Positions 10,723 through 62,245 are shown, counted from the stretch's first letter. The stretch: 64,000 bases of DNA from Candidatus Adlerbacteria bacterium (GCA_903851045.1 CAINNF010000012.1:37189-101188), one strand, 5' to 3'. The notes: generated by a model not told the origin, from the letters alone. Translations and numbers: made by a program.

Positions 10723-11181
10723 CTATCTCGTCGTCGCTAGTATCGCCGGGAACGGCTCTGTGTCTGCAGCAGCGTGTGGTAGAGCGTCAGGTGCCGCTTC
10801 GGGCATACCCACATCCTCCATCTCACCGCTCTGCAGAGCAATATCAAGCTGTCTATGGAACTCTATCGGATCCATACCATGCGGAGCGTTTACTAGTACA
10901 CTAAAACGAGTACCATTGTCTCCTGGCTGCCACAGAAACTCCACTAACCGGCGATTGGGGTTAGGGGATCCTAAATGAAAACCTTTCGTATGTGGTCCTC
11001 CTCTTATTTTGGTAGTAACCGTAGCTGTGAACTCGCCCCGGCAGCCACATCGAGCCAATAGGAGCTTAAGCGTGAATAGAAAGTCCTTCTCTTGGCCAAA
11101 GTCTTGCACGAGATTCGCTTTTCCCTTAAGCAAGACCGATACTGGATGGGTGACATCTGGAGCGAGGGCGGCCGCATTCAT
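10723..11181 (-). CDS. Hypothetical protein. Probably the 5' part of the same gene, interrupted by a frameshift near 10.72-10.76 kb.
   Basis: 152-aa ORF ending 72 nt before the next ORF. Two frames are open simultaneously at 10720-10760. Confidence 0.4.
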   Translation of the reverse strand: MNAAALAPDVTHPVSVLLKGKANLVQDFGQEKDFLFTLKLLLARCGCRGEFTATVTTKIRGGPHTKGFHLGSPNPNRRLVEFLWQPGDNGTRFSVLVNAPHGMDPIEFHRQLDIALQSGEMEDVGMPEAAPDALPHAAADTEPFPAILATTR

Positions 11182-18335: not shown

Positions 18336-19829
18336 TTATGACTGATGATAGAGCGATCTTGCATACTGTTTCGTGGCGAACCATATGAGCGGTATATATG
18401 CAACGATCAAGAACCAGGGGGAGAATTCACTGATTACAACGGTGCCGAACGGGATGCTTGCTGCAACATTCGCTACCAGCATCATCCATTTTAAGATCAC
18501 GTCAGAGAGGAGCGCGGGGATGAAGCCGAGTGTGGGCGAGATGAATCCAAGGAGGCCAGCGACAAAGCCGAAGAACATCGCTTCGGGGACGAGCGGGAGC
18601 GCTATCACGTTCGCTGGCACACTCAAGAACGAGAGTACGCCCGAGAAATAGAGCAGCGCAGGGAGCGTGAAAATTTGCACCGCTATCGTGCTCGCGGCAG
18701 TTGCGCGGACGTCGCTCCAGCGATTGCCGCGAAAGATTTTGAGACGTGAGAGATAGCCTTCGACCCATGGGGAGAGTGTGATGAGCCCAAAGGTGGCGAG
18801 CACACTAAGGATGAATGACGTGTCATGCAGCATCGACTCCGGATTCCACAGCACCATGCCGACTCCTGCGAGCGCGAGTGCGCGTAGCGCTTCCGTTGGT
18901 CGGCGGAGGTATCGCCCCAAGAGTCCCACGAGCGCCATGATGAGCGCGCGGATGGTCGTCGCACCCGCGCCCGTCATGAGCGCGAAGAGTATCATCACGA
19001 ACCCGCCAACCCCGAGACTTATCGTGCGTGGCAAGAACGCGAACGCGCGGAAGATGCCGTCAGAGACTATCGAGATATTGTATCCGGAAAGCACGACAAC
19101 ATGAACAAGACCACTCGCAATAAATGCCTGAGTAAGATCTTTCGGGATGCCACTTTTCTCGCCGAGCAGAATTCCTTCAAGCAGCGAGGCGTCTGGCTCG
19201 ATGAATATTTTTTCGAGCGATGACTCGAACGCGTGTTTGAAAGTGAACAAAACGCCCATGGGCGACGTCCTGGCCGGGACGTCGCCCACCAACTGAGCTT
19301 TGGGCAACTCAGTCGAGATTCCCTGTGCGCGCAGGTAACCAGGATAGTCGAAGGTGTGGCCCGTGTCTGTCTCGAAGGTTTGGGGCAGCGCGAGTGTGCC
19401 GCGCAGCTCTACTGTGTCACCATATGAAACCTTCTCGTCGCGCTCCAAGAGCACAAGCACCTTGCCCAATGCTTGATGGTCGCCAATCTTCTCAACATCA
19501 ACCGTGACATGCAGCGACGTCTCGCGTCGGTCGGGGTCAGCACTCACTCGCCCCGCAAGCATGACATCCTGACCCACAAAGAGTGGTACCGTCTCGGTCG
19601 CTTCCTGTTGCAGCACGAAGTCGGCGCGTAGCATCCCCAGTGACACGGCCGCGAGCAACGCCACAGCCAAGAATAGTGACGGCACCTTGCGCCAGAGAGC
19701 AACCACCAGAACACCCAGTGAAACAACAAGTAGTGTGGCGATAGTCAGGAACCCAGTATGAAACAGGAGTCCCACTGCGACACCGAGCAGCACCCCCGCG
19801 ACAGTCGCATACAAAAACGCGCCTTGCAT
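18336..19829 (-). CDS. comEC: ComEC/Rec2 competence membrane channel (DUF4131 + competence domain) lacking the MBL domain.
   Basis: 497 aa, polytopic. Conserved GAGATTIRALIMALVGLLGR region. Confidence 0.85.
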   Translation of the reverse strand: MQGAFLYATVAGVLLGVAVGLLFHTGFLTIATLLVVSLGVLVVALWRKVPSLFLAVALLAAVSLGMLRADFVLQQEATETVPLFVGQDVMLAGRVSADPDRRETSLHVTVDVEKIGDHQALGKVLVLLERDEKVSYGDTVELRGTLALPQTFETDTGHTFDYPGYLRAQGISTELPKAQLVGDVPARTSPMGVLFTFKHAFESSLEKIFIEPDASLLEGILLGEKSGIPKDLTQAFIASGLVHVVVLSGYNISIVSDGIFRAFAFLPRTISLGVGGFVMILFALMTGAGATTIRALIMALVGLLGRYLRRPTEALRALALAGVGMVLWNPESMLHDTSFILSVLATFGLITLSPWVEGYLSRLKIFRGNRWSDVRATAASTIAVQIFTLPALLYFSGVLSFLSVPANVIALPLVPEAMFFGFVAGLLGFISPTLGFIPALLSDVILKWMMLVANVAASIPFGTVVISEFSPWFLIVAYIPLIWFATKQYARSLYHQS

Positions 19830-42731: not shown

Positions 42732-43130
42732 TCAGGCCCGGACGAGCCGGGTGACGGCGTAGACCTGGCCGTCCGCCGTGCGGACGACTCCGTCCCGCGG
42801 GCCGGTGCCGGGGATGAAGACATCCTCGCGTGCGGCCACTTCGGGCCGCCCGCCGACGAGGGCGGAGACCAAGTAGACGGTCCCCTCCTCGGGCTCGGGC
42901 AGCCCCTCCACCGCACCATACGCGGTGCGGTCGAAGGTGGGCACACCGCCCAGGTCGGGCAGGCGCCCGCCTGGCGTGGTCGAAACCCGCGCGGGCGCGG
43001 GCCTGCCGTCCGCGCCAAGGCGCGGCAGGACGACGATGTCGGTCTCGTCCGGCTTCGGCGCCGTATTGGCGGCGTTCATCCGCAACCGGAGCGGGTGCGG
43101 GTTCAGGTTGAGGAACTTGACGTCGATCAT
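42732..43130 (-). CDS. Hypothetical protein (132 aa), Pro/Gly-rich. First gene of the island operon.
   Basis: GAGGGGG RBS before ATG (MIDVKFLNL). Confidence 0.5.
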   Translation of the reverse strand: MIDVKFLNLNPHPLRLRMNAANTAPKPDETDIVVLPRLGADGRPAPARVSTTPGGRLPDLGGVPTFDRTAYGAVEGLPEPEEGTVYLVSALVGGRPEVAAREDVFIPGTGPRDGVVRTADGQVYAVTRLVRA

Positions 43131-43336
43131 TTTTTAAAACCCCCTCGCATAACGGGAGCCCTTTCTCGCTTGGCGCTACTCAAGCAGAGTCCTGTATTTT
43201 TCCACTATGGGCCGCAGGACGCGGATGTTGATGATCGGGAATCAGCCCGCCTTCGCCACAGTGGCTACGGTCGAGCAAGAATGATCCCCGTGCAAAGACT
43301 TATGCATCGGTCTTCGCACGGGAAACACTCGGTTTG

Positions 43337-43425
43337 GTATGCGACCCCTCTTTCCAGCACGATGGGGCGAGCGCAATATATTTGTGCTGCTCGCATGCCG
43401 GCATAGTGCGGAAAAGAGGGGTCAC
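43337..43425. repeat. Nested-hairpin element: outer inverted repeat ATGCGACCCCTCTTTCC / GGAAAAGAGGGGTCACAT enclosing the GCGAGC..GCTCGC and ATGCCGGCAT palindromes.
   Basis: Read directly. The GCGACCCCTC core recurs at about 44207 and 49487. Confidence 0.5.
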
Positions 43426-43644
43426 ATCTGTGGATTTCCTTTCTCCTCGTTTGAAACCGCTATTCGATTAGCTCGAAGTGAGTCATCAGATACTGGTTTC
43501 AAGTAGGAGGACGAGCGCATAACCAAGCGCTCGCCTCAAGTTTGGAGAGTTTATACCCAGGCACTCCCCTGCCTGTTGCGAACGCTGCCGTGTCAGCGTT
43601 CGCGATGAACTATTCCCCTGCACGGAGGGGTTTGGAGGCGAATC

Positions 43645-44949: not shown

Positions 44950-44991
44950 TTTGTCACAGAAGCTTGACAAATCAACCCCTACGAGTATACT
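44950..44991 (+). promoter_or_regulatory. Promoter plus palindromic operator of TrmB paralog 1.
   Basis: TTTGTCA-cagaagct-TGACAAA palindrome overlapping the -35 TTGACA. A 16-nt spacer, then -10 TATACT, then 6 nt to the ATG (near-leaderless). Confidence 0.55.
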
Positions 44992-44997
44992 GGCAGT

Positions 44998-45840
44998 ATG
45001 GATACCAAAGAACTTTCGTATGGTCAGAGCTTGGTCGAGGCAGGTTTGACGAAGGACGAGGCGCTCGTCTACGAGACCCTCGTGCTGCGCGGCCCACTCC
45101 AAGCTGGCGTATTAAAGCGGCATGTTCCTCTCTCCCGCCCGCTGGTATATAAGGTGCTAGGGACACTTGAGGCGGCTGGGTTAGTCGAAAAAAGGGATGA
45201 ACCCGGCAAAGTCGCCGTCTTCGCCCCCGCGCATCCGCTGAAGTTACAGGAGTTGGTCGAGAGGCGCTTCGACGACGCTCAAAATGCAAAGTCCTCTCTC
45301 GAGGGAGCAATCTCGCGACTCATCTCCGACTTCAACCTCGTTTCGGGTAAGTCGGGTATACGGTTTTATGAGGGTACAGACGGCGTGCGTGAAGTACTTA
45401 ATGACGCACTCACAGCAAAGACCGAGATACTCGCCTATATAGACATCGAGACGGTGGAGCGCGAGATGGGGGAGGCAAGCAAAGCGTTTGGTATCGCTCG
45501 CAAAAAACGCGGCCTCCACAAGCGCAACATCGCCGTCGACACACTCGCTAACCGAGCACTCGTTGACCAAGAATATCTTGATGACATAACTAAAGAGCGG
45601 CTTATCCCTTGGTCAACGCCCACATTCAGTGTCTCGACGCAGATATACGACGATCGTGTGTCATATCTCACATTCGGCGCCCAGAAGATCGGCGTCATCG
45701 TCAACGACCCAGCAATTGCCGCCATGCATCGCGGGTTATTTGAGTTGGCGTGGAGTCACCCGAGCGCATATGTACCAAAGACTCACGCAGCTAAGGCAAG
45801 CGGCTCAGCTACTGACGACAACCGCTCGAATGCAGCATAA
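44998..45840 (+). CDS. TrmB-family transcriptional regulator (paralog 1).
   Basis: N-terminal winged HTH (LTKDEALVYETLVLRGPLQAGVLKR...LVYKVLGTLEAAGLVEK) plus a TrmB-like C-terminal domain. Confidence 0.8.
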   Translation: MDTKELSYGQSLVEAGLTKDEALVYETLVLRGPLQAGVLKRHVPLSRPLVYKVLGTLEAAGLVEKRDEPGKVAVFAPAHPLKLQELVERRFDDAQNAKSSLEGAISRLISDFNLVSGKSGIRFYEGTDGVREVLNDALTAKTEILAYIDIETVEREMGEASKAFGIARKKRGLHKRNIAVDTLANRALVDQEYLDDITKERLIPWSTPTFSVSTQIYDDRVSYLTFGAQKIGVIVNDPAIAAMHRGLFELAWSHPSAYVPKTHAAKASGSATDDNRSNAA

Positions 45841-46694
45841 TACTTTTGTGTACCCGACTCGTCCTGCTCCATGAAATAGCGCGTTAATACCATCCTGTCG
45901 TGCAATAAAGTTGGAAAATCTGGTACAGTCTCGCTCGCCACAAACTGCGTGAGCACAGAGCGCTCGCCGCGAGCAGCTCGCTCCATGATGTCTTTCCTCG
46001 ACAAACGTTTTGTTGCGAACAGATTGCCTTCGCGCCGCTCTAGAGCAAGTGTTGGCTCGCCCTGGTCTTCGAAACGGTGCGTAGCGTAAAAGTTGTAGTC
46101 CTCGAAGTATTTGCTCACGATAGGGGTGCGCACAATGTCGATGTCCGACTCTGCGACCAATACCGAACCCTTTTGTTCTTGGTCGATGCCTTGCTCCATC
46201 ACCGCCTGACCAAGCATGCCTCCCTCGAATGACTGACTGGTGAGAAACGAGGCGAGATGCTTCTTGGGGAGTTCGTCTTCACTGGTGCCGACTTGCTCGG
46301 CTGAAAAGTAACAAGCGATCTGCCCTTTATAGCGGTAGATATAGAACGTGGTTTGCTCACTCCCGAGCGCCTTTTCAAATTGTGCTCGCAACTCATGCTC
46401 CAACTCTGCGCCATACTTCCCCGCGTAGCGATATTCCCAAATGTGCCGCATATCTGTACGATTAACCTCCTGAAGCTGTGCCGCGTTGACACTTTCGAGC
46501 GTACCATCTCGCACTTGCTCGAGCGATAATTGGTTGCGTGTTTTGAGCACACGACACGCGTCGGTAAACAGCGCAATGTCTGCTTGCACCGACTGCGCGA
46601 GCGCCACCAGTCGCTCGGGTTCGTCTTTGTACGTGTGCGCATCAGCAAGTAGCTTGCGTGCGCGGTTAAGTTGTCGCTCAACTACCGCACCCAC
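45783..46694 (-). CDS. Hypothetical protein (303 aa). Its 3' end overlaps the TrmB-1 3' end by 58 nt.
   Basis: Long ORF with lower GC than its surroundings. Its start overlaps the upstream gene's stop by 13 nt, suggesting translational coupling. Confidence 0.55.
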   Translation of the reverse strand: MGAVVERQLNRARKLLADAHTYKDEPERLVALAQSVQADIALFTDACRVLKTRNQLSLEQVRDGTLESVNAAQLQEVNRTDMRHIWEYRYAGKYGAELEHELRAQFEKALGSEQTTFYIYRYKGQIACYFSAEQVGTSEDELPKKHLASFLTSQSFEGGMLGQAVMEQGIDQEQKGSVLVAESDIDIVRTPIVSKYFEDYNFYATHRFEDQGEPTLALERREGNLFATKRLSRKDIMERAARGERSVLTQFVASETVPDFPTLLHDRMVLTRYFMEQDESGTQKYYAAFERLSSVAEPLALAA

Positions 46695-48385
46695 GACGCC
46701 TGTGTCCTGCGCACCAAACGACTCGGCAAATAAGTACCCATAGTATCAACAGACTCTATGAGCGAACTGTACGCCGCAAAGACCGCGTGCGCCTGCTCGG
46801 GTGCTGTCGTGTGTGCAAACTCAAACACTTTATCCCGTAATGTCGGATCTTGTTCAGTGACGAGAAAGGTACGCAGACCATCTACGCCGAATGAGTGGGT
46901 GAATTCTTTTGTCGATTCAGCGTCCTGTACAGATACGGTCTTTAAATACTGCAACATGCGGAACTGTTCATGTAGTGTGAGGTCAGCGAGCGTACACCCA
47001 AATTCGTTTTCTATCGTCTTTCGCACTGGCCTCGTGAGCATATACTCAAAGTCGTGCTCGGCGATCTTCGCTTGCTCTAAATCCATCTCCCCATCCTTGG
47101 TCTGAAGTACGAGATCACGAGCATCTACTTTATAGGTAAAAAGTGCCGCAATCGCAGTTTGCGTCTCTTGATACTGATCCCATAATTGTCTATTTGGTGT
47201 CCAAATTATTTCGTGTTCACCCTGTGCTATAGCCGCATCAACCAACTCTTGTGGAGGCTGGAGTTGCCCACGCAACTCACGGAGTCGAAACAAGAGCCCC
47301 TCTACTTTTCCACGCGTCTCTCCTTCAATTATGTATAATCCATCTGACTTATGAAACCCAAGAACTCCATTCGATACCTCGAACGGTTCACCATCATTAT
47401 CAGGCAACGTGTCGTGCTTCTCCATGCGATCATATAGTTGGCGAGCACGCATATTGAGTAGGTAACTACCTTCCCTGTGTTCGACTGCGCGACGCAGCGA
47501 AGACGATATCGCTCGCGGGACAGCTTCTTCCGAAAAACTCCAGTGCGAACCCTCGCGATGTAGATGTCGCAACAACTCGAGAAAGTGGCCAGTCTGTGAG
47601 TAATTCTGTGGATTGTTAAAATCAAGACTACGAAGTATTGCGGCTTCATACCGTGGACCCCAATGAAATGAAAAAATATAATTTAGTGATGCAACGCCGC
47701 TAGTTCGTAGTGAAGGATGTACATCATTTCTCCAATATATGTCAGCCACTTCCTCGATAAGTACGTTTGGGTCGATCAGTTGGCCGTTCTGACCAATAGC
47801 ATCATCCATCTGCTGCATAGCCCATACCGCACGACGGTCTTTAGAAAAATGCGGATCTTTCATTGCGGCATACAAAGCGCGATACGCCTTTGAAGTAAAC
47901 GAGTCTCGGGATATCTTCCCTCCGCGAGCAAGGTTAAACCCAACATGATGCGCATCGGCACTATGTTCTGTACAAAACTCTATTGCTTTGTGCACCATCG
48001 TGTCTACCTCTTCTTGAGAAAGGTGGTTGAGAAACTCGCCGCTGTATGGCAACCCACGAAATAATTTCTGTGTAATTTCTTCTGGTGAACTGTCAACAAT
48101 CCACTCACGAACTATGTTCAATTGTTCGCGTTCTACTTTCGTTAATTCGGGTTCTACCTCTTCTTGTCGTTGAGACTCCTGCTGTACTAATTCGTGATTA
48201 CGAGGAGGGACGAGTTGTTTCTCCAACAACGTCTTTGACTTCTTCGGCGCTCCACCAGGCATTTTCATATCCTCTATGCTACCGCGAAATGATGAGGTGC
48301 AAAATAGTTCTTTCTTGCTTTCGTCCTTTCCTTGTCCGCCGAAGTCTCGACGAAGGGGGTTAGACTCATCAGCATAGATACACAT
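46682..48385 (-). CDS. Hypothetical protein (567 aa, or about 527 aa from the internal MKMPGG start).
   Basis: Long ORF of about 47% GC with no recognised motif. Confidence 0.55.
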   Translation of the reverse strand: MCIYADESNPLRRDFGGQGKDESKKELFCTSSFRGSIEDMKMPGGAPKKSKTLLEKQLVPPRNHELVQQESQRQEEVEPELTKVEREQLNIVREWIVDSSPEEITQKLFRGLPYSGEFLNHLSQEEVDTMVHKAIEFCTEHSADAHHVGFNLARGGKISRDSFTSKAYRALYAAMKDPHFSKDRRAVWAMQQMDDAIGQNGQLIDPNVLIEEVADIYWRNDVHPSLRTSGVASLNYIFSFHWGPRYEAAILRSLDFNNPQNYSQTGHFLELLRHLHREGSHWSFSEEAVPRAISSSLRRAVEHREGSYLLNMRARQLYDRMEKHDTLPDNDGEPFEVSNGVLGFHKSDGLYIIEGETRGKVEGLLFRLRELRGQLQPPQELVDAAIAQGEHEIIWTPNRQLWDQYQETQTAIAALFTYKVDARDLVLQTKDGEMDLEQAKIAEHDFEYMLTRPVRKTIENEFGCTLADLTLHEQFRMLQYLKTVSVQDAESTKEFTHSFGVDGLRTFLVTEQDPTLRDKVFEFAHTTAPEQAHAVFAAYSSLIESVDTMGTYLPSRLVRRTQASWVR

Positions 48386-48397
48386 CTATGGAGCAAG

Positions 48398-48430
48398 CCG
48401 CACGGAGTCGAACCGTGCGGGTTTTTTTGT
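48398..48430 (+). terminator. Orphan plus-strand intrinsic terminator. Its complement has a tRNA T-arm-like sequence.
   Basis: CCGCACGG-agtcgaa-CCGTGCGG followed by GTTTTTTTGTG. The complement reads CACGG-TTCGACT-CCGTG. Confidence 0.45.
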
Positions 48431-48473
48431 GTCTGTCGCCAAGCGGTGTTGTCCTTGTTGCTGCCTAAGAAAC

Positions 48474-48701
48474 TCACTTTCGCTCTCGTTCGAGCATCTC
48501 CCCGAGTGTCAGTTCGTTGGCTCGAATACCGAGAACTACGAGGATTTCAGCGACCCCCTTGCGCCCCAGGTTAGGGACACGAAGCAGATCTTGTACCGTT
48601 TGTTTCAGCAGGTCGTCGCGCGTGAGGACACCTGCCTCCTTGAGAGCATTCCTGACGCGCACCGGCAGCGACAGTGCGTCGATGTCTATAGTCATGACCA
48701 T
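48474..48701 (-). CDS. Stand-alone RNA polymerase alpha-subunit C-terminal-domain (alphaCTD)-like protein, 75 aa.
   Basis: LPVRVRNALKEAGVLTRDDLLKQTVQDLLRVPNLGRKGVAEI matches the alphaCTD helix-hairpin-helix consensus. GGTGAGGA RBS. Confidence 0.6.
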   Translation of the reverse strand: MVMTIDIDALSLPVRVRNALKEAGVLTRDDLLKQTVQDLLRVPNLGRKGVAEILVVLGIRANELTLGEMLERERK

Positions 48702-48889
48702 TCCTCACCCCAGAACCCAGAGGAGCAGGTGTGCGCATGTGGCGCGATAACACGATGAATCCGCGAAACTATTTTCACAGACTCAATAGTGTCCACCATC
48801 TTACAGTCAAAGATGGTGGAGGTGTCTCTGTAACGCGGGCAGAGACGACCCAGCGATTGAGTTACGGAGTTCGCCACACTCCGGCGCCA

Positions 48890-49090
48890 CTAGTGCAAAC
48901 AGCCCGACACGCACCAACGCTCGAGAAGATCTTCAGCCTCCTCGACATGTCCGGTGCGACTGAGCCGCAAGCACTCCGCCAGGACGACCGTGTCGTCCAC
49001 TGGCACGCGCGCGAAGAGGCGCGGTGCACATCCAGACACGAAGTCTGGAGTGACGGCGCGCGCGATAGGCACGATTAACTCACAGTTCAT
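48890..49090 (-). CDS. Small hypothetical protein (66 aa).
   Basis: GGAGGAAG RBS 8 nt before the ATG. A 14-bp perfect hairpin (49120-49160) lies in its 5' region. Confidence 0.4.
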   Translation of the reverse strand: MNCELIVPIARAVTPDFVSGCAPRLFARVPVDDTVVLAECLRLSRTGHVEEAEDLLERWCVSGCLH

Positions 49091-50086
49091 TAGTCACTTC
49101 CTCCGTTTGTTGGTGAGCAGTGTGCGAGGTATGCATCGCTCGCACACTGCTCAACCCAAAATGAGGTCTACAACTTTTTGAATCCACAACGTGACCACAA
49201 CCTGTTTTGTCAGCCACATATGCGAACTCAATAAAGTGGACGATGCATGGCTCGTCCAGACCCTGACAGCTGATGTTCACACCGCCCGAGAGTATCCTTT
49301 CTCGGCTTGCGTCCTCAACTGGAGCCCCAGTTGAAGAACGGTGTAAGCACCTTCGCCCCTACCGGGCGTGGCTGGGGTCAAACAGCCACCTCCCTCTCCG
49401 TGACTCGGAGTCCCCTCCCGTCGTGGGATGGGGCGTCTGGGAGCAGACGCATCACGGTGACCAGCCGCGATACTGTGGACCGTATTTGCATACGACCCCT
49501 CGCACCTTGCCGACGTTCGCGCAAAACCCAATATATTTTGCGGGTTGGCTCAAGGCCTGAAGCGCTTATTCAGCAAGGTGAAGGAATCACATACGATGTA
49601 CCGTATTGAGTTGTCAACGATCCGCGCCCCTTGGACTTCCTTTCGTCCGCCCAAAGACCGTGTCAAAACTCATTGACAGCGGCAGTATAGTCGAATCTTA
49701 ATTTTTGTCAAGTCCTAGTGACATAACTAAATATAAAATACTAAAAAAGGCCTTATATATAGCCATAATATGTATTATATAAATCAATACACATTGACGT
49801 ACAATAGTCCAATGCGCGTATAGTATTGACTTAGAGCTTTGACTATGTTAATCTCTTGACAAGAGCTCCTTGGAGTTCTGGATTGATAGGCTTTCTTGCC
49901 CAGCTGCAATCCGCTGGACTAAAAACGCTGAAAACTGGGCAAATTTTTCGCGGCACAACATGCCGCAAAAAGGAAGATCATGAGAAACCCAGGTGATGGC
50001 GGCGGCATCTGACACCTGTCGGATGTCGACGTCATGAAAATCGGTCAGGAATTCCTGGCCTGAACATCGTGTGATTGGTAGACTAG

Positions 50087-50138
50087 GGGCGGTTCACGAG
50101 GTGCATGCCGCACCCCGAGAACCGCCTTTCAATATTTT
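50087..50138 (+). terminator. Plus-strand intrinsic terminator closing a promoter-rich AT region (49.6-50.1 kb).
   Basis: GGGGCGGTTC-23 nt-GAACCGCC followed by TTTCAATATTTTA. Confidence 0.4.
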
Positions 50139-50889
50139 ACCCCTCCTGCCCCATGTCCCATAAAAGAGAAAACAGTGCGTTCATACTTTGGGCTATTTCC
50201 TCACTTTCAATGACAACTCCGAATATCTTTTTTCGTAGAGCCATAATGGCGACCGTGTGGTCATATATGTAGATATCCGAACTGATGGGCATTTTTTCAT
50301 ATGGGATAAATCGCCTCTCAGTATTCGACACTATGTCCGTAGGCGCCAGCGGTCTATCTTTTCGTGTATATACAGTCTTTACTTGAATACCTTTTGCAGC
50401 TCTCTTCTTGGCATACTCGGTTCGCTCTTCCTCACTAAAAACCTGTTCAAGCGCATCATGTGCATATATCGACCTTAGTTCTGTCCCGGCAGGAAGCTGC
50501 AAAAAACCTTCCCGCATAGCGGTAATTCCTTCCTTACCGCTAAAAAAACGTACGAGCGGCTTGTCACCAGCACTTGCGAACTGACGCAGCAGATCAGGCA
50601 ACAATACATTAAGCTCCTTCTCCTTCACGTCAAACTCTTGGCGCTTTAGTTCGAACGTGCGCTTGAGATATTCGGGTGACTCTGGTGCAAAATAGGTTTT
50701 TTTTCCCTCTTCGTAGGTGCTCATGAGTCCCTTCTTCATAAGCGACTCGAGCTGTACATAGGTCGTCGAGCGGACGATCTTGGCGTGTTTGGCAAGTTGG
50801 TCGGCCGTCGCGCGCCCTATCTCCAGGGCAGCGAGATATACTCGCGCCTCTTTATCCGAGAGTCCAAAATCCTGCAACTCTTGTAGCAT
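50137..50889 (-). CDS. TrmB-family transcriptional regulator (paralog 2).
   Basis: N-terminal wHTH (LSDKEARVYLAALEIGRATADQLAKHAKIVRSTTYVQLESLMKKGLM). Confidence 0.8.
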   Translation of the reverse strand: MLQELQDFGLSDKEARVYLAALEIGRATADQLAKHAKIVRSTTYVQLESLMKKGLMSTYEEGKKTYFAPESPEYLKRTFELKRQEFDVKEKELNVLLPDLLRQFASAGDKPLVRFFSGKEGITAMREGFLQLPAGTELRSIYAHDALEQVFSEEERTEYAKKRAAKGIQVKTVYTRKDRPLAPTDIVSNTERRFIPYEKMPISSDIYIYDHTVAIMALRKKIFGVVIESEEIAQSMNALFSLLWDMGQEG

Positions 50890-50949
50890 GGTCTTAATTG
50901 TATACGATATTTTAGCCGTAAAGTATACTTTCTCTGGTACGTATAAAAA

Positions 50950-51906
50950 CTACTCTTGCGATTCCTTTCCCTCACTCGCGCTCCTTGCTATCCGGGCTTT
51001 CGTCATCTTCAAACTCCTGTCGATCTGTTCGCAGACCCTGTCCCCTCTGAACATCCCAAGGGGGAGCGATGATTTTTCCTCAAGCATCTTCTGGAGCACA
51101 AGTCGAGCCTTCTGGCAGAATGCGGCAACATTTCGTTGACCTTGTGTTGGATGCTCTCCTCGAAGGGCATACGCTTCGTACACCTCGAGCTGCTCGACCA
51201 CCTGCTTCAAGATCATGTGTTGGATGGGGTGTGTGCGCAATTTCTCTTTTTTTACTCTATGTGTCTCCTTCTCCAACCAGAGGTCCGCCAACTCTTCCAC
51301 TACACCACGTTCGACCCCCACCACGGTTCGGGGAACGTTTCGTAACGTCTCTTTCGTTCCTGCCGACTCATAGTATTTAATTTTTGCAGCCTCTCCCCTA
51401 TCGATTTCCTCTAAGATGCGACGAAATTTATTCGGTACTGCCCACTCGCCGAACGAGACGTCTACCGCGAGCGCCAAGTGGCGACGCCCTCCGGACGGGT
51501 CGGTCATTTCTATGACTATATCGACACCGTTCACTATGTCGTCATAGGGAGTGGTCCGTACCGCCACTACCCCCTCACCTAACCATCCAGACTCGTTCAC
51601 TTCGTCATATACCACACCCTCAAACACGTCTGCTGCAAACTTTGCCTCACGATGTTCGGCGCGCTCCCTCGGTGAAAGTCTTTGCTCGTCCGATGCGAAT
51701 CTTTTCTTACACTCCTCGACCGTTCGTTTGTCTGCTTCTACTGTGTTGCCGGGTGATGCCCCGAAAGAATCCATATCGACACCGGTTTTAAATACGGTCG
51801 CCGACATGCGGCCGTGGGCGTCACGTAGCGTCTTTTGCGCGCGTTCCCGATCCTCCCGAGCAAACACATCCGCAAGGGTCGCTCTCCGTGGTCCTTCTCT
51901 AAACAT
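50950..51906 (-). CDS. Hypothetical protein (318 aa), immediately upstream of and co-oriented with TrmB-2.
   Basis: Long ORF with no recognised motif. Confidence 0.5.
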   Translation of the reverse strand: MFREGPRRATLADVFAREDRERAQKTLRDAHGRMSATVFKTGVDMDSFGASPGNTVEADKRTVEECKKRFASDEQRLSPRERAEHREAKFAADVFEGVVYDEVNESGWLGEGVVAVRTTPYDDIVNGVDIVIEMTDPSGGRRHLALAVDVSFGEWAVPNKFRRILEEIDRGEAAKIKYYESAGTKETLRNVPRTVVGVERGVVEELADLWLEKETHRVKKEKLRTHPIQHMILKQVVEQLEVYEAYALRGEHPTQGQRNVAAFCQKARLVLQKMLEEKSSLPLGMFRGDRVCEQIDRSLKMTKARIARSASEGKESQE

Positions 51907-51977
51907 ATCCTATATGCTACCGCACAACAGCGCAGGATAAAAATTGCGCGCAGTGGCCAATTTGGTAGTATGTTTGT

Positions 51978-52619
51978 ATGCAAGATAAGACGATCTACAA
52001 CCAACTGGTGCCCATGGTCATCGAAAAGTCGCCGTATGGTGAGCGGGCTTTCGATATTTATTCACGACTGCTCAAAGACCGTATCGTGTTCCTCGGTGGA
52101 CCGATCGACGACAATGTGGCCAATTTAACCATTGCCCAGCTCCTTTTTTTGGCCTCCGAAGACCCCAAGAAGGACATTATGCTCTACATCAATTCCCCTG
52201 GCGGCTCAGTGACCTCGGCACTCGCGATGCTCGACACCATGTCCTACATCAAGCCGGATGTCGCGACGATCTGTGTCGGCATGGCAGCGTCGGCTGCGGC
52301 CATCCTCTTGGCGTGCGGTACGAAGGGCAAACGCTTTGCACTCCCGAACGCCGAAGTGATGATCCATCAGCCGTGGGGCGGTGCTCAGGGCCAGGCGACC
52401 GATATCGAGATCACGGCTCGCCACATCCTCGGTACCCGTGACCGTCTCAACAAGATCCTCTCAAAGGCGACTGGGCAAACCCTTGCCAAGATCGAGAGTG
52501 ACGTCGAGCGCGACTACTTCATGAGCGCGGAAGAAGCCAAAAAATATGGTATCGTCGATGATGTTTTTTCGACCAAACATTCTTTGACTCCGACCGTGAC
52601 TCCAAAAAGTACTAAGTAA
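51978..52619 (+). CDS. clpP: ATP-dependent Clp protease proteolytic subunit.
   Basis: Catalytic Ser in GMAASAAA, His in MIHQP and Asp in the ClpP fold. 213 aa. Confidence 0.9.
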
Positions 52620-52734
52620 ACGACCCAAGTAGCACAGAAGCCCAAAAAATTGCCCCATAAGGGGTTTTTTGGTATTGTTGAAGGCGTTCAAGAGCCTATT
52701 TTGAACCACATTAACTTTATGTCCACTTTCACAT

Positions 52735-54264
52735 ATGTCATTAAAAGTATTACTCTCGCTACTGGCACTAGCGGGGCTGGTGGGAGGCGTCATTGGATAC
52801 GTCTTCCGATTGCTCCTTTCGCTCGGTCGTAAGGGTTCGATAGAAGTAGAGGTCAAACAACTCTTACTGGATGCTCGGGAGGAGGCGAAGAACATCACCT
52901 CTCAAGCTGAGGAGGAGACGAAGCAGAAAATAGCGGTCGTTGAAGCGGAACTGCGCGAAAAAGAAGAGAAGACATCACGCGCCGAGGATCGCGTTTTTAA
53001 ACGTGAGGAGGCGCTCGACAGGAAACAGTTGGAGCTTGATAAGGAGATCAGCGCGGTCAAGGCGAAGATCGAAGAGATCCGATCCATCAAGGAGCGTGCC
53101 GACACATTACTTAGTGAGCGCAGCAACGAACTCGCGCGAGTCGCTGGCCTCACCAAGGAAGAGGCGCGTGAGCGGCTCTATGCGGAAATGAAGCGTGAGG
53201 CTGATGAGGACCTCATGGTGCGCCTCGCCAAACTTGAACGAGACGGGATGGACCGCCTCGAGCGTCGTGCTAAGGAGATCCTCACGACCGCTATACACCG
53301 TCTCGGCAACTCGGTCGCATCTGACACTATGGCGACCGCGGTCACTATCCCTAATGATGAGCTGAAGGGAAAGATCATCGGCAAAGAGGGCCGCAACATC
53401 AAAGCGCTTGAACGTGCGACCGGCGTCGAGATTATTATCGATGACACTCCCGGCTCGATACTTCTCTCCTCGTTCGATCCGATACGACGCGCCATCGCTC
53501 GCGTGTCGCTAGAGAACCTCATCGTCGACGGTCGTATCCAACCTGCCAAGATTGAGGAAACGGTAGAGAAAGCGAAGAGCGAAATAAACAAGATCATCAA
53601 GGAAAAGGCCGAGGCTGCCGCTTTTGAGGCAGGTGTACTCAATCTTGATCCGCGACTCTTGATGATCCTTGGACGACTGCACTTCCGAACCTCTTATGGT
53701 CAGTCGGTCCTCCAGCACTCAGTCGAAATGGCACACATTGCGGGTATGATCGCAGAGGAGGTCGGTGCGAATCCTTCGATAGCCCGAGCCGGAGCACTGC
53801 TTCACGACATAGGTAAGGCGCTCGACCACGAGGTACAGGGCACCCACGTCGAGATTGGCCGTCGTATACTCCAAAAATTCGGTGTTTCAGAGGAGGTGGT
53901 CAAGGCGATGCAGGCCCACCACGAAGAGTATCCATACGAGACTGTCGAGTCGGTCATCGTCCAGGTCGCCGACGCTATCTCTGGCGGCCGCCCAGGCGCA
54001 CGCCGCGACTCGGTCGAACAATATCTTAAGCGCCTTGCGGATATCGAAGAAATTGCAATGTCCTTCCCTGGTGTCGAGAAATGCTATGCCATTTCAGCCG
54101 GTCGTGAAGTGCGAGTATTCGTGAAACCAGACGAAATGAGCGACTTCGCCGCTCGCGAATTGGCACGCAACATCGCTCTGCGTATCGAAAACGAGCTCAA
54201 ATACCCAGGAGAGATCAAGGTTGCCGTCATCCGCGAGACACGAGCGATCGAGTTCGCCCGCTAG
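52735..54264 (+). CDS. rny: Ribonuclease Y.
   Basis: N-terminal TM helix, coiled coil, KH domain (GKIIGKEGRNIK) and HD domain (LLHDIGK). Confidence 0.9.
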   Translation: MSLKVLLSLLALAGLVGGVIGYVFRLLLSLGRKGSIEVEVKQLLLDAREEAKNITSQAEEETKQKIAVVEAELREKEEKTSRAEDRVFKREEALDRKQLELDKEISAVKAKIEEIRSIKERADTLLSERSNELARVAGLTKEEARERLYAEMKREADEDLMVRLAKLERDGMDRLERRAKEILTTAIHRLGNSVASDTMATAVTIPNDELKGKIIGKEGRNIKALERATGVEIIIDDTPGSILLSSFDPIRRAIARVSLENLIVDGRIQPAKIEETVEKAKSEINKIIKEKAEAAAFEAGVLNLDPRLLMILGRLHFRTSYGQSVLQHSVEMAHIAGMIAEEVGANPSIARAGALLHDIGKALDHEVQGTHVEIGRRILQKFGVSEEVVKAMQAHHEEYPYETVESVIVQVADAISGGRPGARRDSVEQYLKRLADIEEIAMSFPGVEKCYAISAGREVRVFVKPDEMSDFAARELARNIALRIENELKYPGEIKVAVIRETRAIEFAR

Positions 54265-54317
54265 TCCCATCAACTAACGTAGTCTGACTGCGTTAGAACA
54301 TACAAGGAAATTGCGCC

Positions 54318-54350
54318 GGCGGGGGACATGTCCCCCGCCAGCGCTTTTGG
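54318..54350 (+). terminator. Intrinsic terminator after rny.
   Basis: GGCGGGGGAC-at-GTCCCCCGCC stem followed by AGCGCTTTTGG. Confidence 0.5.
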
Positions 54351-54367
54351 CACCCTACAGAATTTCA

Positions 54368-54724
54368 CTACGGAATCGGCACTTCCTCAAACCGCGACTC
54401 CCATTCTGGATTGATAAGTTCAACCCGCACCATCTTCTCCCCGACAGCAATAACTCCAATTCTACGTATAAACAGGTGGGGTTGATCAAAACCAGCATAG
54501 CTCTCGTGTCGCCACTTCCACTCTTGCGTTACATGTTTGCCACCAGTGACAACATAGAGCCGCGAGAAGTAGGCTACTCCACGACCTAACCTTGAGTCAG
54601 ACCTCTCACCCAGAAGAACAGCGACGTCCCCAACTTCCCTCATTGACTCAACATCAACAGAAGCGTTCCGAAGAAGTTCTGTGGGTCGCAGCGTCTCCAA
54701 CACATACGCTCTATTGTTGTTCAT
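54368..54724 (-). CDS. Hypothetical protein (about 118 aa from MNNNRAY), divergent from TrmB-3.
   Basis: The ORF track extends to 54856. The intergenic region shared with TrmB-3 contains TGTCGACA and TTTGACAA motifs. Confidence 0.35.
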   Translation of the reverse strand: MNNNRAYVLETLRPTELLRNASVDVESMREVGDVAVLLGERSDSRLGRGVAYFSRLYVVTGGKHVTQEWKWRHESYAGFDQPHLFIRRIGVIAVGEKMVRVELINPEWESRFEEVPIP

Positions 54725-54838
54725 AACGAACACTTCTCCTGTTACGAGAACGCTGGATAAAATACACCAATATCTTATATCTGTCGACAAAATATGTCGT
54801 TCTTTGACAACATATAAACCAGTACTTTGCTTAATTTG

Positions 54839-54866
54839 TTGACTACTCACCAACAACCTCTATACT
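54839..54866 (+). promoter_or_regulatory. Promoter of TrmB paralog 3.
   Basis: TTGACT, a 16-nt spacer, TATACT, then 7 nt to the ATG. Same architecture as TrmB-1. Upstream TGTCGACA / TTTGACAAC operator-like motifs. Confidence 0.5.
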
Positions 54867-54873
54867 GTACCGT

Positions 54874-55632
54874 ATGTTGGAGAAGGAGTTTCAGGCACTT
54901 GGGTTCAATATGAACGAGAAAGATGTATATCTAGCGCTTGTGCAGCTGGGTAAAGCGTCGCCGGTACGTATCGCCAAAGAGACGGGCATTAATCGCACCA
55001 CTGTCTACAGCATCTCGCGCAAGCTCATCTCGCTCGGACTTGTTGGCGAGGACTTGAGCGCGAAAGCCGCCTACCTCTATGCCGAAAGACCCGAGGCGCT
55101 TAGACACATGTTCGCGAAAGAAGAGACCGCTTTACATACACGAAAAGCTCTCGCTGAGACCATCGCCCACGAAATCGCCGCATTACCATCAGCGGGCGCC
55201 TACTCTGTCCCACGTATCAAATTTGTAGAAGAAACCGACTTGAGTGAGTACCTGTACAGCGCGACCGAGCAGTGGGTCACGAGCGGCATGCAACGCGACA
55301 ACCTATGGTGGGGCTACCACGACGACTCGTTCACGAGCGAATACCGCGAGTGGATTGAGTGGTGTTGGAAGCGTTGGCCAGAGACGCACGTACGCCTCCT
55401 CAGCAACAAAGCCGAGGTCGAAGAACGACTATCCGAGAAATATGCACAGCGCATTACACGTACCCTGCCTGACACGCACGACTTCGATTCGAGCTTGTGG
55501 GTAATTGGCGACTATGTGCTCATGGTGCAGACGCGCGAGCGGCCACACTATCTCGTCGAGATCCATGACGCTGTCTTTGCTCGCAACCAACGTCAATTAT
55601 TCAAAAGTTTATGGAACCTTTCCTCACAATAA
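54874..55632 (+). CDS. TrmB-family transcriptional regulator (paralog 3).
   Basis: N-terminal wHTH (MNEKDVYLALVQLGKASPVRIAKETGINRTTVYSISRKLISLGLV). Confidence 0.8.
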   Translation: MLEKEFQALGFNMNEKDVYLALVQLGKASPVRIAKETGINRTTVYSISRKLISLGLVGEDLSAKAAYLYAERPEALRHMFAKEETALHTRKALAETIAHEIAALPSAGAYSVPRIKFVEETDLSEYLYSATEQWVTSGMQRDNLWWGYHDDSFTSEYREWIEWCWKRWPETHVRLLSNKAEVEERLSEKYAQRITRTLPDTHDFDSSLWVIGDYVLMVQTRERPHYLVEIHDAVFARNQRQLFKSLWNLSSQ

Positions 55633-55776
55633 GGAGGCGGTCTAGGCGCAGCCAACTGAGTTTGTGTCACCCATGGACACAAGACACTATCCCCGTGGCT
55701 CTATTGCAAGGTTTTTTGGAGGCGGTATACTGCTGTGGCAGGGCAAACTCTTTTATCAGTTATATTCATAGCTATG

Positions 55777-60769: not shown

Positions 60770-62245
60770 ATGCAAATCTCACGCAGCCAAATACCTAGGG
60801 AGATAATACAGGTAACTGACACACTTGAAAAGGCCGGGTTCGAAGCCTGGATAGTCGGAGGCTGTGTGCGCGACCTATTCATCGGTCGAAAACCGAAAGA
60901 CTGGGATATTACCACCAATGCCAAGCCCGAGGATATACAAGCATTATTCGAAAACACTTTCTATACCAACGAATTTGGGACCGTCGGCATAGTCAACGAG
61001 GGCGTAGCGGACGAATCGCTTAAAATCGTTGAGGCAACACCGTATCGCACTGAAGGGGAGTACTCGGACGCACGCCGTCCGAGTAGTGTCGTGTTTAGTC
61101 CTCATGTTGAGGATGATCTTAAACGTCGAGATTTCACGATTAACGCACTCGCCTTTAACCCATCCAAGGGCACCTTGCTCGATCTGTACGACGGGACAGG
61201 GGATATGTCAAAGGGTGTTCTCAAGGCTGTAGGTGAGCCCCAGGAGCGTTTTATGGAGGACGCACTACGAATATTACGGGCAGTGCGCATAGCTGCCGAA
61301 CTCGACTTCGCTATAGATCCAAAGACCGAATCGGCAATGGAACAGTGCGCCAAACAACTTGGGAAGATCTCTCAGGAGCGTATTCGGGACGAGTTTGTTC
61401 GTATTATAAACTCACCACAACCAAAGAAGGCGCTCGAACTCGCTCAAAAGCTAGGAATTTTGTCCTTTATTGTCCCTGAGCTCGAGCAGGGGAGGGGGGT
61501 AGACCAAAACCAAGCTCACAGCTTCGATGTCCTTGAGCACAATTTACGTGCCCTACAGCATGCCGCAGACAAAAACTGGAGCTTTATTGTCAGAATATCG
61601 GCTCTACTGCACGATATAGGAAAGCCAGCTTCAAGACGGTGGTCCAACGAGAAACATGACTGGACCTTCCACGGACATGAAGTAGTAGGTGCCAGAATGA
61701 CTAAGGTAATACTCCAAAGGTTGAAGTTTCCACGTGAAACAATAGAGACCGTGCAAAATCTAGTCCGTTGGCACATGTTCTTTTCTGACCCCGACAAGGT
61801 TACCTTGTCGGCCGTTCGACGCATTATACGAAACGTTGGACGTGAAAACATTGAATATCTTGTAAACCTTCGTGTTTGTGATCGTATTGGCACAGGTAGG
61901 CCAAAAGAACAGCCATTTAGGCTCCGAAAGTACCAGGCAATGATAGAACAGGCGTTACACGACCCAATATCTGTCACAATGCTTGAAATCAATGGTAAGC
62001 AGCTTATGGACGTTACACGTGAAAGTCCCGGACCACGTCTTGGATGGATGTTACATGCTCTGCTTGAAGAGGTTATTGATGATCCATCAAGAAACACTTT
62101 AGAATACTTGGGGAATCGAGCAAAAGAACTTTCAAGACTCGATGATAGGGAGCTGCTCGCACTCGGGAAAGAGGGGAAGGAGCGGAAAGAAGAAGCTGAA
62201 CAAGAAAACACTAAAGAAATTCAGAAGAAATACTTTGTAAACTAA
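60770..62245 (+). CDS. cca: CCA-adding tRNA nucleotidyltransferase with an HD domain.
   Basis: GGCVRD...DWD pol-beta head, HD domain (LLHDIGK), 491 aa. TGgTAGAAT extended -10 sits 7 nt before the ATG (leaderless-like), only 40 bp from the tRNA-Arg 5' end. Confidence 0.85.
   Translation: MQISRSQIPREIIQVTDTLEKAGFEAWIVGGCVRDLFIGRKPKDWDITTNAKPEDIQALFENTFYTNEFGTVGIVNEGVADESLKIVEATPYRTEGEYSDARRPSSVVFSPHVEDDLKRRDFTINALAFNPSKGTLLDLYDGTGDMSKGVLKAVGEPQERFMEDALRILRAVRIAAELDFAIDPKTESAMEQCAKQLGKISQERIRDEFVRIINSPQPKKALELAQKLGILSFIVPELEQGRGVDQNQAHSFDVLEHNLRALQHAADKNWSFIVRISALLHDIGKPASRRWSNEKHDWTFHGHEVVGARMTKVILQRLKFPRETIETVQNLVRWHMFFSDPDKVTLSAVRRIIRNVGRENIEYLVNLRVCDRIGTGRPKEQPFRLRKYQAMIEQALHDPISVTMLEINGKQLMDVTRESPGPRLGWMLHALLEEVIDDPSRNTLEYLGNRAKELSRLDDRELLALGKEGKERKEEAEQENTKEIQKKYFVN

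Follow-up and report, generated by a model that had tools for sequence, protein, structure and literature searches.

Organization of the locus

This work describes a group of regulator genes and a recurring DNA palindrome in a 64,000-nucleotide stretch of a Candidatus Adlerbacteria genome (GCA_903851045.1, CAINNF010000012.1:37189-101188), referred to here as the window; positions are counted from its first letter. Between positions 44,950 and 55,632 lie genes for three TrmB-family regulators, designated TrmB-1, TrmB-2, and TrmB-3. Reading along the region, TrmB-1 (plus strand) is followed by p303 and p567 (minus), a mini-protein corresponding to the C-terminal domain of the RNA polymerase alpha subunit (alpha-CTD; minus), p66 (minus), about 1 kb without called genes, TrmB-2 (minus), p318 (minus), ClpP and RNase Y (plus), p118 (minus), TrmB-3 (plus), and HU. 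The inverted repeat TGTCA-N8-TGACA overlies the promoter of TrmB-1 and occurs twice more in the interval without called genes, at a promoter that faces a structured RNA. The exact sequence of TrmB-1 is also present on freshwater metagenome contigs and in the metagenome-assembled genome (MAG) GCA_903945565.1; TrmB-1 homologs (n = 81) are named Candidatus Kaiserbacteria or Adlerbacteria.

TrmB-family proteins

TrmB-1 (44998 to 45840, plus strand; 280 aa), TrmB-2 (50137 to 50889, minus strand; 250 aa), and TrmB-3 (54874 to 55632, plus strand; 252 aa) had been called TrmB paralogs in a first-pass annotation of this DNA, and profile searches bear this out. All three exceed the gathering score of the Pfam TrmB model (PF01978; 25.6 bits), with 45.8, 53.4, and 48.2 bits, respectively (E values of 5e-12, 2e-14, and 1e-12), and they are mutually colinear over their full lengths at 25 to 26% identity. 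An AlphaFold (AF2) model of TrmB-1, built with 31 homologs, had a predicted local distance difference test score (pLDDT) of 86. Its closest PDB match was archaeal TrmBL2, which aligned over the full length (267 to 277 columns; E values of 5e-15 to 3e-13), while the winged helix-turn-helix (wHTH) part also matched MarR-family structures and the C-terminal part also resembled PLD-fold proteins. The TrmBL2-type architecture, comprising a wHTH, a long helix, and a PLD-like C-terminal domain, was judged by structure for TrmB-1 and by colinear alignment alone for TrmB-2 and TrmB-3.

In an NCBIfam scan, the TrmB, TrmBL1, and TrmBL2 equivalog models scored these proteins far below cutoff. The sugar-sensing TrmB/TrmBL1 models NF040851 and NF047390, for instance, gave 17 to 26 bits against cutoffs of 600 to 650, with the HTH region alone aligning; the corresponding equivalogs have about 340 residues, compared to 250 to 280 for the proteins of the window. 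Given the full-length match to the TrmBL2 fold and equivalog cutoffs that are far from being reached, TrmB-1 belongs to a TrmBL2-like bacterial branch that lacks the sugar-binding subdomain.

TrmBL2 of Pyrococcus and Thermococcus (PDB entries 5bqt, 5bpd, 5bpi, and 5box) shares with TrmB-1 the N-terminal winged HTH (PF01978), the long helix, and the PLD-like C-terminal domain. It is of similar size (264 aa, against about 260 aa here), is likewise without a sugar-binding subdomain, and has a conserved tyrosine in the recognition helix, a residue that is invariant in TrmB-1 homologs. In TrmBL2 this residue, Tyr50, has been reported to be important for DNA recognition (PMC4158304). The two differ in that TrmBL2 is archaeal and TrmB-1 bacterial (Patescibacteria), with an identity of about 20%. 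Furthermore, TrmBL2 has been described as an abundant chromatin protein found on coding and intergenic DNA, whereas the sites described here are few and specific, with 3 in 64 kb.

A conserved operator at the TrmB-1 promoter

The operator of TrmB-1 (O1, 44950 to 44971) is a perfect TTTGTCA-N8-TGACAAA palindrome, just as the first-pass annotation had stated, with the core TGTCA-N8-TGACA at 44952 to 44969. Its right half coincides with the −35 element of the TrmB-1 promoter (44964 to 44991, plus strand), which consists of TTGACA (44964 to 44969), a 16-nt spacer, and TATACT (44986 to 44991), followed by the ATG 6 nt on. This promoter matches the consensus at 11 of 12 positions and is of the leaderless type.

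That annotation had staked its proposal on the palindrome being conserved in orthologous loci, and conservation was found. In a set of 80 TrmB-1 loci, each from another GTDB species and with protein identities of 31 to 92% over the best segment, 42 loci have an exact TGTCA-N8-TGACA in the 150 nt upstream of the TrmB-1 ortholog, and 49 have it with at most one mismatch. When half-site spacings of 4 to 13 were compared, spacing 8 accounted for 42 of the 46 exact occurrences, and every other spacing was found in 0 to 3 loci (3 at spacing 9 and 1 at spacing 10). The remaining 783 kb of these loci hold 10 exact sites, most of which also lie upstream of the regulator gene, at 150 to 750 nt, and have a promoter, apparently before a small leading open reading frame (ORF). 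In the usual ortholog layout, the right half is the −35 element, the −10 element follows 16 to 17 nt on, and the ATG comes 6 to 7 nt later, so that most leaderless loci have the operator start 46 to 47 nt ahead of the ATG. One subgroup keeps both site and promoter with a leader of 30 to 45 nt.

A position weight matrix (PWM) derived from the orthologous sites extends the consensus to TTTGTCA(Y)A...T(T)GACAAA. Exact copies of the operator number three in the window, against 0.05 expected; they begin at 44952 (TrmB-1's own), 49706, and 49661. The motif is unlike any operator tabulated for archaeal TrmB proteins, namely, TACT-N3-AGTA, the TGM TATCAC-N5-GTGATA, and TACT-N7-8-GAGTA (PMC4158304).

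A dual-operator promoter at 49.7 kb

The two further copies of the operator sit on one promoter, on the minus strand within the stretch that lacks called genes. Operator O2 (49706 to 49723) covers the −35 element of this promoter (49684 to 49723), which reads TTGACA (49711 to 49706), a 16-nt spacer, and TATACT (49689 to 49684). Operator O3, an exact TGTCA-N8-TGACA at 49661 to 49678, begins 5 nt past the −10 element and lies over the predicted transcription start. The promoter has an 11/12 consensus match and is tied with TrmB-1's own as the best sigma-70-like match in 12.5 kb. PWM scores are 33.5 for O1, 30.2 for O2 (the 49723 site), and 2.6 for O3. Similarity between the O2 promoter and TrmB-1-type upstream regions is weak by nhmmer (best E value of 1e-4, in locus L011). 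The suggestion that the genes between the regulators are under their control is strengthened, as this promoter, which reads into those genes, carries the sole other operator copies in 64 kb.

The palindrome might alternatively be a matter of promoter architecture, either as back-to-back −35 elements serving divergent transcription or as an upstream element read by RNA polymerase, with O3 being just the 5′ hairpin of the RNA. TGTCAA is indeed TTGACA on the other strand, an opposite-strand −10 element lies at the right distance in several TrmB-2 loci, and O3 would form a hairpin of 5 to 6 bp with one covarying pair. The distribution of the left half-site argues otherwise. Among 181 TTGACA-N16-18-TANNNT sites in the TrmB-1 loci, 39 have the left half-site, and 37 of these 39 are at a regulator gene; away from regulator genes, it accompanies just 2 of 127 promoter-like sites. 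The left half-site is no general promoter feature. The spacing is also nearly always 8, and half-site symmetry reaches 7 nt at TrmB-1 promoters (TTTGTCA/TGACAAA). In the window, an opposite-strand arrangement of TGACAA, 16 nt, and TATAAA, somewhat like a divergent promoter, was seen by eye only, and it is not evident in orthologs. At O3, finally, the outer bases are kept as sequence rather than as pairs, with AGTCA...TGACA and TGTCA...TGACG both occurring. We consider this explanation quite unlikely and retain the reading of TGTCA-N8-TGACA as a protein-binding operator.

The first-pass annotation had ascribed to all three regulators a TTGAC(A/T)-16-TATACT promoter close to the ATG as well as autoregulation. 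The promoter form recurs at TrmB-3, and it fails at TrmB-2, where the −10 element TACAAT (50902 to 50897, 7 nt before the ATG) is the only element present and no TTGAC(A/T) −35 was found. Autoregulation is strongly supported by ortholog conservation for TrmB-1; a PWM scan detected no operator at the promoter of TrmB-2 or TrmB-3. TrmB-2 homologs are numerous (n = 364, many of them 55 to 77% identical), and 80 metagenome loci, 65 of them unique, were compared. The orthologs are leaderless, with their own −10 element 6 to 9 nt before the ATG. An exact operator is present at the ortholog's own promoter in 2 of the 65 loci; exact sites cluster instead 1,000 to 1,250 nt past the TrmB-2 start, on the same strand. 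There, a promoter of the 49.7-kb type is conserved 250 to 500 nt downstream of TrmB-2 orthologs. The separation of O2 and O3 is exactly 45 nt in the window and in six of these loci (L089, L099, L110, L111, L121, and L125), and a dual-site promoter is also present in L169, a locus that shares the window's gene backbone.

We infer that the protein binding these sites is a TrmB paralog. As to which one, the site's position favors TrmB-1, and its conserved adjacency favors TrmB-2. TrmB-2, or both paralogs, might recognize TGTCA-N8-TGACA, in which case TrmB-2 would be a constitutive repressor of the RNA promoter and would also control TrmB-1. Operator-bearing promoters do neighbor TrmB-2-type genes in two arrangements, being downstream of the gene in roughly 30 of the 65 loci, whereas members of the L150-L168 group have them upstream and divergent; 6 of 65 orthologs have the motif or a one-mismatch form over their own −35 element; and an R...Y pattern in the recognition helix is kept in both families. 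Yet the motif lies over the −35 element of TrmB-1-type genes in most species, which is the classic signature of self-regulation, TrmB-2 promoters mostly lack it, and the recognition helices differ (SRPLxYK in TrmB-1 versus VRSTTYVQ in TrmB-2). We judge recognition by TrmB-2, alone or along with TrmB-1, to be rather unlikely and take TrmB-1 as the likelier binder.

Several observations concern the surroundings of such promoters. In the more distant loci L150-L168 (e.g., L161, 4520 to 4700, and L165, 4481 to 4660), two TGTCA-N8-TGACA sites about 115 to 125 nt apart lie on divergent promoters, 350 to 520 nt upstream of a TrmB-2-like regulator. The regulator-facing promoter is followed by a conserved-looking untranslated stretch of about 350 nt (GAAACAGUGGCAGAAC...), which has no Rfam match. 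The spacer at 49,724 to 50,136 had no blastn or tblastx match among the TrmB-2 loci and thus holds no conserved element or ORF by these searches. When viral contigs were searched for the dual-operator pattern, one match was obtained (L088, 216 to 279; IMGVR_UViG_3300045988_123889), a promoter with two TGTCA-N8-TGACA sites in the same arrangement within a serine-recombinase mobile element, before a small membrane protein. This match was set aside as probably belonging to an unrelated regulator with a similar half-site.

A structured RNA downstream of the 49.7-kb promoter

No ORF was called for about 580 nt downstream of the 49.7-kb promoter. This stretch, predicted to form an RNA of about 0.58 kb (49095 to 49677, minus strand; conserved core at 49484 to 49624), folds better than its shuffles (z = −7.7). 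In the aligned sequences of eight species, a 5′ hairpin of 5 to 6 bp that is also O3 is followed by a CTTTGACAATTTAATA element and then by a 22-bp helix around a hairpin with an AAAUAUAU loop. In the window, these elements correspond to the boxA-like GTTGACAACTCAATA (49618 to 49604), the helix (49594 to 49571 pairing with 49511 to 49488), and the hairpin that the helix encloses. Covariation supports the fold: 88.8% of cells are paired, versus 39 to 48% with slid partners, 14 pairs have changes on both sides, versus 4 to 6 with slid partners, and none of 500 shuffles reached the observed covariation score. These statistics hold at ten sequences. The covariance model, R1, matched at 96 to 141 bits the training sequences as well as L092 and L169, which lie outside the training set. 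By eye, the similarity to L169 runs on through further hairpins with compensatory changes.

Rfam 15, its riboswitches and large noncoding RNAs included, gave no relevant match at an E value of ≤1 at 48700 to 50140 of the window, and none in 31 related loci. Known RNAs (RNase P, transfer-messenger RNA [tmRNA], signal recognition particle [SRP] RNA, 6S RNA, and rRNA) were accordingly rejected for 49.1 to 49.7 kb, where ARAGORN also found no tmRNA. The hairpin containing a GAAAGGAAGUCC stretch, which resembles P4 of RNase P, lacks conservation in the other species. A decayed TrmB gene was likewise rejected, as a six-frame search of 49.1 to 49.7 kb with a profile of 31 TrmB-1 homologs, filters off, returned nothing. 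A phage origin of the 48.7- to 50.1-kb block was rejected as well, with no blastn match in 50,697 phage records. Since no terminator was found before p66, the stretch is most simply read as a long structured 5′ leader or as a small RNA produced by processing.

The CTTTGACAATTTAATA element resembles boxA (E. coli GCUCUUUAACAA, Firmicutes UUCUUUGAAAACU) in sequence only. The whole arrangement, with a strong consensus promoter, a 5′ hairpin, a CTTTGACAATTTAATA element, and a 22-bp helix, is reminiscent of the leaders of rRNA operons, in which the boxA antitermination element, bound by NusB/NusE, precedes a long RNase III processing stalk that flanks an rRNA. It differs from them in that no rRNA follows (Rfam found none in the window or in the 31 scanned loci), the helix encloses just about 70 nt, and small ORFs make up the genes downstream.

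Elsewhere in the window, the RNA model gave a second, weak match (22 bits; E value of 0.05) at 43333 to 43467 (minus strand), directly upstream of p132. Its layout is alike, in that a long helix (GACCCCUCUUUUCC...GGAAAGAGGGGUC) encloses a hairpin that has an AAAUAUAUU loop, and the stretch is 88% identical in the sister locus L006 (4354 to 4660). In L128, too, the RNA is followed by a p132 homolog.

p66 and the free alpha-CTD

The first ORF after the RNA is p66 (48890 to 49090, minus strand), a small protein gene with a GGAGGA Shine-Dalgarno sequence. L111, L100, L102, and L107 each have a p66 homolog downstream of the RNA, with the distance in L111 again about 550 nt. Just upstream of the p66 Shine-Dalgarno sequence, at 49099 to 49170, is a perfect 14-bp hairpin (GAGCAGUGUGCGAG...CUCGCACACUGCUC), which may be a processing or translational-control element; L169 has a hairpin at the equivalent place (about 10800 to 10850).

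The alpha-CTD mini-protein (48474 to 48701, minus strand; 73 to 75 aa), previously described as alphaCTD-like, matches PF03118 with an E value of 3e-15 (56 bits against a cutoff of 23.8). Residues 2 to 57 align to residues 248 to 302 of solved RNA polymerase alpha chains, with the VRxxN and NLGRK motifs kept. The protein thus shares the C-terminal domain of the alpha subunit and stands alone: the RpoA assembly domain of about 230 aa is absent from the 75-aa ORF, and NCBIfam rpoA equivalogs score 16 to 41 bits against cutoffs of 228 to 1,437. It is, moreover, encoded in a putatively operator-controlled unit rather than in a ribosomal-protein/rpoA cluster. A homolog lies downstream of the RNA in L100. 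Between the alpha-CTD gene and p567, at 48398 to 48420, a GC-rich hairpin is followed by T7 on the plus strand, with no U tract on the coding minus strand; it might terminate antisense or read-through transcription or mark the boundary of the RNA/p66/alpha-CTD unit.

A broken GNAT-like gene convergent with TrmB-1

The 303-aa and 567-aa ORFs had been annotated as a coupled gene pair. Comparison with related loci shows instead that they are one gene split by a single-base deletion, p303 (45783 to 46694, minus strand) being the C-terminal, GNAT-type fragment and p567 (46682 to 48268, minus strand; the mechanical ORF extends to 48385) the N-terminal one. The deletion, at about 46725/46726, leaves TGC-CGAG on the minus strand where the sister species has TGCGCGAG, and the same sequence is found in two further assemblies (L001 and L002). 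A single ORF of 831 to 903 aa occupies this position in the sister species L006/L086, whose TrmB-1 is 92% identical, and in L007/L169. p303 is 85% identical to residues 530 to 831 of the intact sister-species ORF and aligns to residues 458 to 734 of the 742-aa homolog P0082. For p567, a word-index homolog search gave no match, and an exhaustive search retrieved 410 relatives, mostly of 700 to 850 aa, that match over the N-terminal 500 residues.

By itself, p303 has no Pfam-threshold or PDB match; among 40 family members, however, 16 match Pfam GNAT, and the family profile matches solved GNAT chains with E values down to 6e-5. The likeness to GNAT acetyltransferases (PF00583, PF13508, and PF13673) is confined to the C-terminal part. 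Unlike those enzymes, the big protein has this part fused to an N-terminal region of about 500 aa, of unknown function and swapped between close species, and the gene is frameshifted here.

The convergent arrangement of the big gene and TrmB-1 is conserved: 42 of 80 TrmB-1 loci contain a homolog, which in 41 of these 42 lies downstream and on the opposite strand, and in the window p303 overlaps the 3′ end of TrmB-1. Compared with its sister-species counterpart, the big protein has 85% identity over the C-terminal 300 aa and is unrelated over the N-terminal 440 aa. At 46840 to 47050, an 84% nucleotide identity to L086 ends abruptly inside the gene, which points to a recombination breakpoint and domain replacement. 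The gene probably starts at the ATG at 48268, behind a leaderless −10 element (GGTAGCATAGAGGAT-ATG). Nearly the same cassette, GGTAGCATA(G/T)AGGAT-ATG, precedes the big gene (48268 to 48290) and p318 (51906 to 51925), and GGTAGTATAGAGGGT-ATG stands before the intact big gene of the sister species (L086, 13281 to 13300). Such near-identical start cassettes suggest that the ClpP-divergent promoter may have been duplicated or reused during rearrangement of the block.

Proposed regulatory circuit

On balance, we favor with reasonable confidence a model in which the TrmBL2-like TrmB-1 autoregulates through TGTCA-N8-TGACA and the same operator gates the promoter of the RNA, p66, and the alpha-CTD. 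TrmB-1, which is conserved across Patescibacteria, would most likely bind the inverted repeat as a dimer. At the TrmB-1 gene, a bound dimer would exclude RNA polymerase, because the −35 hexamer of this leaderless promoter is itself the right half-site, and negative autoregulation would follow. At 49.7 kb, the operator would act twice, 45 nt apart, over the −35 element and over the transcription start. From there, transcription of the minus strand would run through the RNA of about 0.58 kb, p66, and the alpha-CTD toward the big gene, which lies tail to tail with TrmB-1. TrmB-2 may share or own the 49.7-kb operator, since that promoter is directly downstream of TrmB-2 in many species.

Inverted-repeat operators and autoregulation, as proposed here, have been reported for TrmB family members (PMC4158304). 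Autoregulated MarR/wHTH repressors offer a further parallel: they combine an operator palindrome with 5- to 7-bp half-sites over the −35 element, a dimeric winged-helix protein (as we infer for TrmB-1), and a second site at the transcription start of the target promoter. The present system differs from the MarR type in having a PLD-like C-terminal domain instead of the MarR dimerization fold and in its leaderless promoters.

Several points weigh against this model. Because the operator-bearing RNA promoter is the conserved neighbor of TrmB-2 and not of TrmB-1, it is uncertain whether the site belongs to TrmB-1. About one-third of TrmB-1 loci have no site within 800 nt, and the right half-site is inseparable from an ordinary −35 element. 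O3 has GC-rich flanks along with its low PWM score, and it could matter solely as the 5′ hairpin of the RNA, given that position 6/13 of the site swaps A-U to G-C jointly across species. The RNA alignment comprises just 10 distinct sequences. Finally, the big gene of L086 has its own promoter without an operator, and that of the window has its own leaderless promoter with a hairpin before it; for these reasons, the operon may end after the alpha-CTD.

To our knowledge, almost nothing is known about transcription regulation in bacteria of the candidate phyla radiation (CPR), and we know of none that can be grown alone. A literature search found no paper that mentions both TrmB and either Patescibacteria or the candidate phyla radiation. 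The locus yields a phylum-wide cis element, TGTCA-N8-TGACA, tied to one of the most widespread regulator families of the CPR, together with a predicted minimal regulon and an uncatalogued structured RNA with covariation support. As such, it would provide a first testable regulatory circuit for these bacteria, and the operator could be used for regulon mapping across thousands of CPR MAGs.

A more far-reaching reading, which we think unlikely, is that the operator-gated promoter by TrmB-2 expresses a Patescibacteria-specific transcription-control module, consisting of the RNA and the free alpha-CTD and switched by TrmBL2-like repressors acting at the two operators 45 nt apart. The RNA, of about 0.5 kb and with an rrn-like boxA leader, would then possibly be directed at RNA polymerase or be 6S-like, and the alpha-CTD could be a decoy for UP elements or activator contacts. 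If true, such a module would give the reduced-genome CPR bacteria a global regulatory device without a described counterpart.

Conserved backbone and variable inserts

Gene order in L169, from another Adlerbacteria genome, is HU, RNase Y, ClpP, TrmB-2, the promoter and RNA, seven small ORFs, the big gene, and convergent TrmB-1. This is the backbone of the window, with TrmB-1 and TrmB-2 in equal syntenic positions; both belong to widely conserved orthogroups. Relative to L169, the window has p318 added between ClpP and TrmB-2 and TrmB-3 plus p118 between RNase Y and HU, and the small ORFs differ. The sister species L086 is without the entire block of TrmB-2, RNA, and small ORFs and has other TrmB paralogs around HU. 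Variation is limited to p318, TrmB-3/p118, the small-ORF set, and, in the big protein, the N-terminal 440 aa.

These comparisons bear on the first-pass reading of the region as a low-GC, horizontally variable island in which three TrmB paralogs each regulate themselves through their own palindrome and jointly control the hypothetical genes. The parts just named do vary among related species, and GC content is lower in p567 (47.3%), TrmB-2 (47.5%), and the spacer (43.8%). GC is low in these three only, though: TrmB-1, p303, p318, and TrmB-3 have 53 to 55%, as do ClpP and RNase Y, and p66 (61.7%) and the alpha-CTD (56.6%) are higher. The synteny with L169 largely refutes the island, TrmB-1 and TrmB-2 are widely conserved, and no operator was found at the promoters of TrmB-2 and TrmB-3.

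Near-leaderless starts, which had been taken as a trait of the TrmB genes, are found genome-wide. A −10-like TANNNT ends 5 to 9 nt before the ATG in 11 of the 35 ATG-start genes in the window, including ClpP, p318, and the big gene (4 to 6% expected by chance), and a Shine-Dalgarno sequence is present at 13 of the 35. A −10 element abutting the ATG is a genome-wide layout and no regulator-specific property. We therefore regard the island reading as very improbable; what survives of it is the variability of the parts named above. Extended TGnTAGTAT/TAGAAT boxes recur in the window at ClpP (51978), 18336 to 19829, and 60770 to 62245.

For TrmB-3 and p318, both lineage-specific additions, no operator link was demonstrated. 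The TrmB-3 promoter (54839 to 54866, plus strand) consists of TTGACT, a 16-nt spacer, and TATACT, with the ATG 7 nt on. The two palindromes earlier proposed as its operator, TGTCGACA (54782 to 54789) and TTTGACAAC (54803 to 54811), do exist and overlap the −35 element of the divergent p118 promoter, but their PWM score is about 2, against 30 to 33 for real sites, and an 8-bp palindrome is expected about 0.6 times per 150 nt by chance. The sole relative of TrmB-3 in all fetched DNA is a 39%-identical protein of L086, which has TGTCA-N9-TGACA over its −35 element; TrmB-3 is absent from L169. The RNase Y-HU interval (54265 to 55735), which holds p118 and TrmB-3 in the window, is empty in L169. 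In L086 it contains genes for NYN, a 109-aa protein, a TrmB paralog, and prephenate dehydratase, and another TrmB paralog lies past HU.

p318 (50950 to 51906, minus strand), of unknown function, lies between the ClpP-divergent promoter and TrmB-2. It had no match in Pfam, NCBIfam, PHROGs, PADLOC, or PDB and no homolog in any fetched locus, being absent from L086 and L169, and its single-sequence AF2 model was poor and unusable (pLDDT of 43). Contrary to the earlier expectation that the hypothetical proteins lack ordinary homologues, p303, as part of a GNAT-related family, does have an ordinary relative.

Outside the regulator region, the 36- to 43-kb block has 60 to 66% GC, versus a window average of 54%. 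At its edge lies p132 (42732 to 43130, minus strand; 72.9% GC), which matches two PHROGs of unknown function and, with an E value of 6e-11, PADLOC Unk_01, labeled "unknown small protein, sometimes fused to CARF."

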